Shown one piece after another: positions 60,401-63,400 of a stretch of 64,000 bases of DNA. Position 1 is the stretch's first letter. The number at the start of each line of letters is the position of its first letter. This DNA is from Escherichia coli O157:H7 (GTDB lineage: Bacteria > Pseudomonadota > Gammaproteobacteria > Enterobacterales > Enterobacteriaceae), in assembly GCF_013167455.1 (NCBI RefSeq), contig NZ_CP038328.1; one strand, 5' to 3'. Made by a program: the position numbers.

Positions 60401-63400
60401 TACCGCGATAACGTCGCCCGAATCATTAAAAACGCAATGCTGGATATCGGCCTGGCTATGCCTGTGAAAATCCGCATTGAGTGCCACATGCCGGATCGCC
60501 GTCGCCGTGACCTGGATAATCTGCAAAAAGCCGCTTTTGACGCACTCACTAAAGCAGGTTTCTGGCTGGATGATGCTCAGGTCGTTGATTACCGCGTTGT
60601 GAAGATGCCTGTTACCAAAGGTGGGAGGCTGGAACTGACCATCACCGAAATGGGGAATGAATGATGTTTGAGTTTAATATGGCAGAACTTCTTCGCCACC
60701 GCTGGGGGCGTCTGCGCTTATATCGTTTCCCCGGTTCTGTTTTGACCGATTACCGAATACTGAAGAATTACGCCAAAACCCTGACAGGAGCAGGAGTATG
60801 AAGTCAGAGATAACAATCAACTAATACTGTTTTGTTGATTTTTGCTTGTAATTGGCGTTCTGGTCTGATTTTTGTGGAGTAAGTTGATGCGTGATATTCA
60901 GATGGTTCTTGAGCGTTGGGGAGCGTGGGCGGCTAATAATCATGAAGATGTGACCTGGTCGTCCATTGCCGCCGGTTTTAAGGGACTGATCCCCGAAAAA
61001 GTAAAATCACGCCCGCAGTGCTGTGACGATGATGCGATGGTGATATGCGGGTGTATAGCCCGCCTTTACCGGAACAATCGCGATCTGCATGACTTGCTGG
61101 TTGATTATTACGTGTTGGGGGAGACGTTCATGGCGCTGGCACGGAAACATGGGTGCTCTGACACCTGTATAGGTAAACGCCTTCACAAAGCGGAGGGGAT
61201 TGTTGAAGGCATGCTGATGATGCTGGGAGTGAGGCTTGAGATGGATCGGTATGTTGAGCGTGAATTGCCGGGAGGGAGAACCTCTGTATTTTATCAGCGA
61301 AAAAATAGTTTACGATCGTAAAAATCTGCATATCATGATAAGAGTGGTTACATTGCCACGCTGCTTAACCCGCCGATGCGCGGGTTTTTTTGTACCCAGA
61401 ATCCTGTGAGCTATACGGAAAGTACACAGAAAGGAAGGTGCGACCACAATTAATAACAAAATCTTAAAAATTGCACATGGCACTATTAGTTTTCTAAATA
61501 TTGTGTATTTTTTGTATTGCAGGATGACCCTGTAACGAAGTTTGCGTAACAGCATTTTGCTCTACGAGTTTGCCAGCCTCCCCCAGTGGCTGGCTTTTTT
61601 ATGTCCGTAGCGTCAAAGCAGCAATGTCGCTGGGGCGTCGTGCAATTGGCGTTGAGCTGGAGACTGAACGTTTTGAGCAGACGGTCAGGGAAGTTCAGGA
61701 TTTAGTCAGTCAGAACGGATGATATTGCAGGATTAGTTACGTACCGTTATTATCCTGCGCCCGGCCCTTTAGCTCAGTGGTGAGAGCGAGCGACTCATAA
61801 TCGCCAGGTCGCTGGTTCAAATCCAGCAAGGGCCACCATATTACATACCGCTATTAGCTCATCGGGACAGAGCGCCAGCCTTCGAAGCTGGCTGCGCGGG
61901 GTTCAAGTCCCCGATGGCGGTCCATTATCGGTATTCAGCGTTGTTAGCTCAGCCGGACAGAGCAATTGCCTTCTAAGCAATCGGTCACTGGTCCGAATCC
62001 AGTACAACGCGCCACACCACACTTATCTGCCCTGACTCTCTTTTGCGGGCTTTTTATTACAGGAAAGACACCGGACAGTGAAATGTTAAATGCCTCACAA
62101 TTCAGGCAGTTGAATGTTGCCTGACATGCTGAGCGTTTGTTAAAAAAATTTCGCATGGTGAATCCCCCTGTGCGGAGGGGCAATCAGCAACCAGGTATAT
62201 GTGATAATCGCGGATTCAGGTGCTGATACTGAATTCACCGGGAGGCACCCGGCACCATGCAAGAAAAAGAATGTGCATGCAAACATGCCCCTCTCCGGAG
62301 GGGCTTTTTTATGGGTAAAAAATGCCCGAATGGGTTCGGGCAATAGCATGAGATACTGATATTGTTGTGTTGTTATCGTGTGGATTTTAACCAGGGTTTA
62401 TCAGGCTGCGCAACTGCGTGGCCTTTTTTCATTTCTTGGGCTGTAGTCCCCGTGTGTCATTCAGGCTTCCGGACTACAGCCCACTCCATATCTGATTTAA
62501 TACACTATCCCGGCCGGGAGGAATAATGACATTTAAACATTATGATGTTGTCAGGGCGGCGTCGCCGTCAGACCTTGCTGATGCACTTGCGCAAAAAATT
62601 CGTGAAGGATGGCAACCATACGGTGGGCCGTTTTCTTCGTATACGGATGATGGCGCAGCACTTATTCAGGCGATTGTCGCAGAAGGTGATGTGAGCACAC
62701 CTGTTGTGGTGAAGCTGACAGGTGGAGAAGGTGCAGTAATCAGCGCCACCAGAGACCCGGAGTATTACTTTATTGTGGTTCTGGCGGGGCAGTCAAACAG
62801 CATGGCATATGGTGAAGGCCTTCCGCTGCCGGAGACATATGACCGTCCGGACCCGCGTATTAAGCAGCTGGCGCGCCGCAGTACGGTGACACCGGGCGGT
62901 GTCGCCTGTAAATATAACGACATCATTCCGGCGGACCATTGTCTGCATGATGTGCAGGACATGAGCCGCCTTAACCATCCGAAAGCGGACCTGTCAAAGG
63001 GGCAGTACGGAACCGTGGGGCAGGGGCTGCATATCGCCAAAAAATTGCTGCCGTTTATACCGGCGAATGCGGGCATTCTGCTGGTTCCGTGCTGTCGTGG
63101 TGGTTCAGCGTTCACCACCGGAGCTGATGGCACATACAGTGACGCGAGTGGTGCTTCGGAGAATTCAACCCGCTGGGGTGTGGACAAGCCGCTGTATAAG
63201 GACCTTATCGGTCGAACAAAAGCAGCACTGAAGAAGAACCCGAAAAATGTGCTGTTTGCCGTGGTGTGGATGCAGGGGGAATTTGATTTTGGCGGTACGC
63301 CGGCAAATCACGCAGCACAGTTTGGTGCGCTGGTTGATAAATTCCGTGCAGACCTGGCGGATATGGCAGGTCAGTGCGTCGGTGGCTCTGCTGACGGTGT

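Follow-up and report, generated by a model that had tools for sequence, protein, structure and literature searches.

A 3' remnant of a methyltransferase gene at a mosaic joint between the late terminator and the tRNA cluster of a Q933-type prophage in Escherichia coli O157:H7

The region between the late antiterminator gene Q and the stx genes controls Shiga toxin (Stx) expression and is used to type Stx phages by their q933 and q21 alleles. The late promoter pR' in this region is constitutively active (Sy et al., PMC7547250), and the 3' end of its transcript, StxS-L, has been mapped in Stx1 as well as Stx2a phages to the terminator tR', 258 nt downstream of pR' (Sy et al. 2020, PMC7547250). 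StxS-L is processed by RNase E to give the Hfq-binding small RNA (sRNA) StxS (Sy et al., PMC7547250), and Q-dependent read-through of tR' is established for Stx phages (literature summarised in PMC7547250). In one group of Stx2a phages, q and the tRNA genes have been described as separated by genes for a DNA methylase and a transcriptional regulator, both absent from the group of 61-kb phages (PMC8456039). Here, we analyzed the corresponding interval in a stretch of 64,000 nt from E. coli O157:H7 (contig NZ_CP038328.1 of assembly GCF_013167455.1), referred to below as the window, in which a first-pass annotation made from the sequence alone had noted an open reading frame (ORF) downstream of Q that resembled the end of a DNA methyltransferase. 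We found that positions 61612-61722 of the window are very probably a non-functional 3' remnant of a lambdoid-prophage, beta-class N6_N4_Mtase methyltransferase gene, left by an ancestral illegitimate replacement at 61609|61612. The methylase pseudogene of 933W-like Stx2a prophages is the same feature as this stub, and the window prophage differs from those prophages in having no stx2AB downstream of the tRNAs. The features on which this reading turns are as follows.

61570-61722, plus strand: 50-codon ORF reported in the first-pass annotation, with a TTG start; a mechanical ORF, called 'DNA methyltransferase' in some phage records.
61612-61722, plus strand: pseudogene remnant of the methyltransferase gene, comprising codons 317-352 of 352 and the stop (nt 949-1059 of 1059).
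61609-61612, no strand: mosaic junction; the left module ends at 61609, methylase homology runs from 61612, and the 'GC' at 61610-61611 can be assigned to neither side.

The ORF is present as reported, with its TTG start and a 50-aa product that ends ...VKAAMSLGRRAIGVELETERFEQTVREVQDLVSQNG, but its stop codon occupies 61720-61722, one base short of the end at 61723 that had been given. Of its 50 codons, 36 derive from a methylase and the first 14 do not. The TTG stands just before the tR' stem, and these 14 codons consist of the hairpin and 9 nt of non-methylase sequence; this terminator and non-coding sequence is identical (100%) in Stx1 phages, in which the frame does not go on. The rest of the ORF is clearly homologous to a methylase C-terminus. 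A tblastn search of an intact 352-aa homologue against the window placed residues 316-352 at 61609-61719 with 86.5% identity (E 8e-15). Residues 1-315 had no significant match anywhere in the window by tblastn, the other matches being at noise level, which bears out the earlier observation that no DPPY region lies upstream. At the nucleotide level, 61612-61762 was 94.7-97.4% identical to the 3' ends of intact methylase genes together with the intergenic spacer (blastn), and a tblastn search of the peptide against 50,697 phage records matched the C-termini of full-length 'DNA methylase' genes. The profile search, which had been proposed alongside tblastn as a check, stayed below threshold: Pfam N6_N4_Mtase scored 13.4 bits where 26.7 are required (E 0.075), over profile positions 196-220 of 221, and an NCBIfam profile search was empty, both for a very short fragment. 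Since a profile search by itself cannot decide on so short a fragment, the significance of the match is shown by tblastn, blastn and synteny.

As regards the family PF01555, the remnant does not reach the Pfam gathering threshold and contains neither of two motifs. The catalytic motif IV, (D/S)PP(Y/F), is represented in the intact protein by DPPY at residues 35-38, outside the remnant, and the S-adenosylmethionine (AdoMet) motif I, FxGxG, by FMGSG at residues 310-314, which ends two codons before the homology in the window begins. Descent from the family is shown by the C-terminal homology together with synteny. The breakpoint falls after both DPPY and FMGSG, so that the stub cannot have enzyme activity.

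The stub is followed by a tRNA cluster, which is shared with the phages that carry an intact gene.

61763-62014, plus strand: tRNA cluster ileZ-argN-argO, comprising Ile2 (CAT), Arg (TCG) and Arg (TCT).
61725-61753, plus strand: TTGCAG-17-TATTAT, predicted to be the sigma-70 promoter for the tRNA genes; it lies beyond the methylase stop and its discriminator is rich in G+C.

Comparison with related prophages, which had also been suggested, revealed that Stx2c and Stx2d prophages among them have an intact 352-aa gene of the N6_N4 type, placed after Q and ahead of the same tRNA-Ile(CAT)/Arg/Arg cluster. In the Stx2d phage Stx2_112808, the gene (BCI49784.1) ends 40 nt upstream of the tRNA cluster, and its product matches Pfam N6_N4_Mtase with an E of 9e-44 as well as the solved structures of the beta-class enzymes M.RsrI, CcrM and M.MboIIA. 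Other intact alleles at this site were found in Stx2a_12E129 (Stx2a), in an Stx2c phage and in a second, non-Stx prophage of EDL933 (WP_000935548.1). The intact gene was present in 1916 out of 5426 complete E. coli genomes, and an ORF of 65-75 aa precedes the methylase in this arrangement. The intact gene (BCI49784.1, WP_000935548.1) and the stub occupy the identical position and are alike from the final 36 codons and the stop through the 40-nt spacer, which contains the tRNA promoter, to the tRNAs, whereas residues 1-316 and the preceding 65-aa ORF are gone from the stub, which is thus a fragment and not a working member of the family. Other truncated forms of the gene were also identified. 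PhiR49_2 has a 92-aa remnant (locus 2836-3114) with a breakpoint at about nt 781, which keeps motif I and passes the Pfam threshold; in contrast to the stub, it is a plain internal deletion in the same Q backbone. In E. coli OkiPb01700 and 23AR1183, the gene is 5'-truncated, with breakpoints at nt 665 and nt 763, compared with nt 949 in the window. Overall, there were at least three further, independent losses of the methylase 5' end (breakpoints near nt 665, 763 and 781 of 1059), and the 3' end and the tRNAs were always kept.

To the left of the junction, the window contains the following late-control features.

60887-61321, plus strand: Q933-type late antiterminator gene Q, 144 aa, with a full-length match to Pfam Phage_antitermQ (E 1.3e-51).
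61309-61336, plus strand: late promoter pR', TTTACG-16-TATCAT, a promoter-like site overlapping the end of Q, from a consensus scan.
61367-61391, plus strand: first terminator-like hairpin after pR', fold -11.9 kcal/mol.
61572-61600, plus strand: tR' intrinsic terminator, a hairpin with a U6 run, fold -14.5 kcal/mol, z-score -2.8.
61343-61600, plus strand: StxS-L transcript from pR' to tR', about 258 nt, as predicted by counting from the -10 box; the last base of the left module is 61609.

The junction could be located from both sides by a sensitive blastn search of 61322-61762 against phages. VT1-Sakai, AU6Stx1, Lahn1 and H-19B matched at 99-100% over 61322-61609 and then not at all, while the intact-methylase phages 1720a-02, Stx2_95, Stx2a_1447 and phiP27 matched 61612-61762 at 95-97%. 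As the Stx1-phage matches end at 61609 and the intact-gene matches start at 61612, the joint lies at 61609|61612, which is 9 nt past the U-run of tR' and two codons past motif I. Direct alignment agreed with this split. When a 101-nt probe across the joint was searched against 5,426 complete E. coli genomes, the matches spanned the probe, stopped at 61609 or started at 61612. An earlier start of the homology, with the terminator sequence 'GCTGGCTTTTTTATG' aligned to the methylase sequence 'GCAGATTTTTTCATG' and the T-run as a relic of the codons for D-F-F-M, was considered and rejected, because Stx1 phages are identical up to 61609 without any methylase context. The left module was found to end at 61609 in two settings: before the stub and the tRNAs in Stx2a phages and the window prophage, and before the stx1 cassette in Stx1 phages, where the pR'-StxS-tR' module is joined at this same base to the toxin cassette and not to the stub. 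Stx1-phage homology resumes near 62081, and 61610-62080 behaves as an exchangeable cassette slot.

The junction is widespread. It was identified in 541 out of 5426 complete E. coli genomes, including O157:H7, O111 and O55:H7, and in more than 200 Stx2a phage records. Positions 61330-61760 are 100% identical in more than 190 Stx2a phage records, and 209 complete E. coli genomes, O157:H7 for the most part, match the whole stretch from Q to the anti-sRNA gene AgvB at 100%. The stub had been taken as a sign of rearrangement in the interval between Q and the tRNAs; this is upheld, but the rearrangement is ancient and common to hundreds of Q933-type prophages rather than peculiar to the genome of the window. 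The Prokaryotic Genome Annotation Pipeline (PGAP), applied to the identical sequence in O157:H7 strain ECP19-598, calls a pseudogene corresponding to window 61609-61722, labelled 'DNA methylase; incomplete; partial in the middle of a contig; missing N-terminus'. By comparison, a 50-aa 'DNA methyltransferase' coding sequence (CDS) is annotated in ArgO145, PA2 and ST2-8624, and the interval of the stub is blank in the Sakai annotation.

The left partner of the junction is the pR'-StxS-tR' module of Stx1 and Stx2 phages (PMC7547250), with the same promoter and the same two hairpins in the window, and is no part of the methylase. It is arranged as a lambdoid Q, pR' and tR' region: a Q antiterminator gene, named 'antiterminator Q family protein' by PGAP, lies directly upstream, a promoter overlaps its end, and intrinsic terminators follow (the hairpins at 61367-61391 and 61572-61600). 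Positions 61322-61609 are 100% identical to VT1-Sakai (blastn), and in this identical module the depositors of VT1-Sakai annotated a late promoter, a qut site and two terminators. Their 'putative late promoter' coincides with pR'. The hairpin at 61367-61391 is a putative rho-independent terminator in VT1-Sakai and is labelled tR' in the 933W record Y10775; alignments showed it to be homologous to the hairpin after Q in the intact-methylase phages. The element at 61572-61600, where the VT1-Sakai record places a rho-independent terminator of pR' transcription, pairs 61572-61578 with 61588-61594 in a G+C-rich stem of 7 bp that closes a 9-nt loop, and its U6 run is at 61595-61600. If StxS-L starts about 7 nt past the -10 box, at approximately 61343, then 258 nt would bring it to approximately 61600. 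Because this falls at the end of the U-run, the hairpin that had been noticed beside the ORF should be tR' and the 3' end of StxS. For this placement we used the distance of 258 nt downstream of pR', since the published Sakai Term-seq coordinate, 1,266,460, does not fit NC_002695.2 and apparently refers to an earlier sequence version. An offset of 142 nt between the versions would also give a 3' end at 61600, but was not relied on. An extra copy of the StxS sRNA should be expressed from the stx-less prophage of the window, to judge from its sequence, without any toxin gene (PMC7547250).

The sequences on the two sides of the junction are not equally conserved relative to the phages with an intact gene. 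The Q protein of the window (144 aa) is only 50% identical to that encoded before the intact methylase (126 aa, Stx2d phage), although the pR'-proximal transcribed region and the first hairpin are homologous in both arrangements. This diverged left flank next to a right flank of 95-97% identity is the signature of a mosaic joint. In addition, the 218 nt of 61392-61609, which hold the 3' part of StxS and tR', had no counterpart in the intact-methylase phages by sensitive blastn; in their place, those phages carry the 65-75-aa ORF and the 5' 948 nt of the methylase. This suggests a segment replacement or an illegitimate joint between two different phages, which is the best reading of the scar, instead of a clean deletion. 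Window-type and 933W-type alleles form two diverged classes that have this junction in common, which points to a single ancestral event. The parental order would have been Q, pR' with a short terminator, the 65-75-aa ORF, the 352-aa methylase and the tRNAs. In the ancestor of the Q933-type prophages, that is, 933W-like Stx2a prophages and their stx-less relatives, illegitimate recombination may then have replaced the small ORF and nt 1-948 of the methylase by the 218-nt segment with the 3' part of StxS and tR', giving the joint at 61609|61612.

Two other accounts of the origin of the sequence were weighed. The Pfam score, which is sub-threshold, could by itself be taken to mean that the resemblance to a methyltransferase C-terminus is a chance match in non-coding DNA. 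We count this as refuted, and give it practically no probability, given a tblastn E of 8e-15 and a DNA match of 95-97% to the 3' ends of intact genes that lie in the same synteny. The other account is a plain internal deletion, without exchange between phages, in an ancestor that had both Q933-pR'-tR' and a complete methylase. A deletion had also been the explanation in the first-pass annotation, which was right that most of a methylase gene was lost. Real internal deletions of this gene exist, as in PhiR49_2 and in the truncations at nt 665 and 763, and Q and the pR'-proximal regions are homologous in the two arrangements. A deletion alone, however, does not account for 61392-61609, which has no counterpart in the intact-gene phages, these matching only from 61612 onward, nor for a left flank that is diverged beside a right flank that is 95-97% identical. 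Moreover, no record was seen in which tR' is followed by a longer piece of the methylase, and all genome probe matches that include the tR' side cross the junction or stop at 61609. A plain deletion is therefore unlikely as the origin of the stub.

Downstream of the stub, the tRNAs are transcribed from a primary start site that differential RNA sequencing (dRNA-seq) has located between tR' and stx2AB (PMC7547250). The best candidate for the exact position of this promoter is 61725-61753, whose hexamers are kept among alleles while the spacer and flanks have diverged; the consensus scan missed it, the first hexamer having 3/6 matching positions. The promoter-tRNA-Ile cassette was also found without methylase sequence, and with a different antiterminator, in many E. 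coli prophages, where homology to the window starts exactly at 61723. In E. coli H8 (locus 1584-2616), for example, a 284-aa antitermination protein of a different type is followed by about 60 nt and then by the promoter-tRNA-Ile cassette, with no methylase. Homology thus sets in with the first base past the methylase stop codon, which suggests that the gene's end forms a second module boundary. The first tRNA gene, at 61763-61838, was called 'Met (CAT)' by ARAGORN and is given as tRNA-Ile (ileZ), the lysidine-modified Ile2, by both PGAP and the Sakai annotation.

In the lysogen, without Q, the pR' transcript would end at 61600, before the stub. By analogy with Stx phages, Q-modified polymerase would read through tR' after induction and cross the stub into the tRNAs and the late genes, so that the stub would now be only a transcribed spacer, unable to methylate DNA. 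The differences between alleles fit relaxed constraint: the stub of the window has 5 nt differences from the closest intact allele, 4 of them non-synonymous, and 8 from the 933W allele. Several points weigh against the reading of the stub as a functionless scar of a replacement. The C-terminal tail also varies among intact alleles, and 5-8 differences over 36 codons are too few for a test of selection (dN/dS). The frame is open in all copies examined, several phage records give the 50-aa 'DNA methyltransferase' CDS, and translation of the stub after Q-dependent read-through, though unlikely from its sequence, would be at odds with loss of function. Finally, the failure to see a Q933-type phage with a longer piece of the methylase comes from a search that was not exhaustive.

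These points bear on whether the stub has kept or acquired a role. A real small gene with a new function could be seen in the 50-codon ORF, or in its 33 codons from ATG 61624 onward, one possibility being a peptide that interacts with the intact methylases of co-resident prophages; its open frame in all copies, the CDS calls in ArgO145 and ST2-8624 and the intact paralogues in the same genomes, for example in EDL933, would agree with this. Yet the TTG at 61570 sits at the foot of the terminator stem, no Shine-Dalgarno-like sequence precedes either this TTG or ATG 61624, the first 14 codons are non-coding in Stx1 phages, and without Q the pR' transcript ends upstream of the methylase part of the ORF (PMC7547250). 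PGAP rejects the gene call and the allele differences are mostly non-synonymous. The combination of a ribosome-binding site, a canonical start and whole-ORF conservation beyond shared ancestry was not found in the ORF, and its constant length is explained by one inherited junction and implies no conserved small gene, so that we regard a small gene as extremely unlikely. It is very unlikely that the DNA of the stub is kept for a role in cis, as an upstream activator of the tRNA promoter or as a leader for tRNA processing. None of the independent 5' truncations seen extends into the last 111 nt, and the tRNA promoter lies just downstream of the stub, but the same cassette, starting exactly at 61723, is found in many prophages that have no methylase sequence and thus does not need the stub; retention of the stub as an upstream element of the promoter was set aside on this ground. 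More generally, there is a slim chance that the stub is not inert, through either a peptide of 33-50 aa from late translation or its 111 nt as a patch of homology. Such a peptide might correspond to the C-terminal helix of the methylase and modulate the intact paralogous methylases of co-resident prophages. As a patch, the 111 nt might allow Q933-type and intact-methylase prophages to exchange their late regions, including stx, by homologous recombination, and the clustering of the allele differences in the stub hints at patchy exchange with other alleles.

The stub is thus an ordinary pseudogene scar that has already been annotated and implicitly described before. It is best labelled as a pseudogene, and the 'DNA methyltransferase' CDS in phage records is misleading. 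It marks, to the base, one mosaic joint of the Q-to-stx region, and lineages of the Q933/StxS module could be traced by the joint at 61609|61612. The presence or absence of the intact methylase separates groups of Stx phages, as the literature already has it. Beyond its correct annotation, the stub is of little importance.

Downstream of the tRNAs, two sRNA genes were identified with Rfam.

62124-62316, plus strand: STnc100, full-length, 160.7 bits.
62317-62378, minus strand: anti-sRNA AgvB, 96.5 bits, identical to the model consensus.

At the AgvB site, AsxR, the Stx2-phage variant, scored below its own Rfam threshold. The Q933-type prophage of the window has no stx genes in this interval (62015-62530). 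After argO, a short terminator-like stretch is followed by the region found downstream of stx1B or stx2B in Stx phages, and the arrangement in the window corresponds to that of an Stx2a phage minus the stx2AB cassette of about 1.3 kb. This stx-less arrangement recurs with 100% identity in 209 complete E. coli genomes, most of them O157:H7. A long ORF that starts near 62526 encodes a homologue of the prophage nanS-p/yjhS esterase, named a DUF6645 domain protein by PGAP. Because this ORF runs off the end of the window (62526-64000), a listing of ORFs shows only short ones in 62526-64000.

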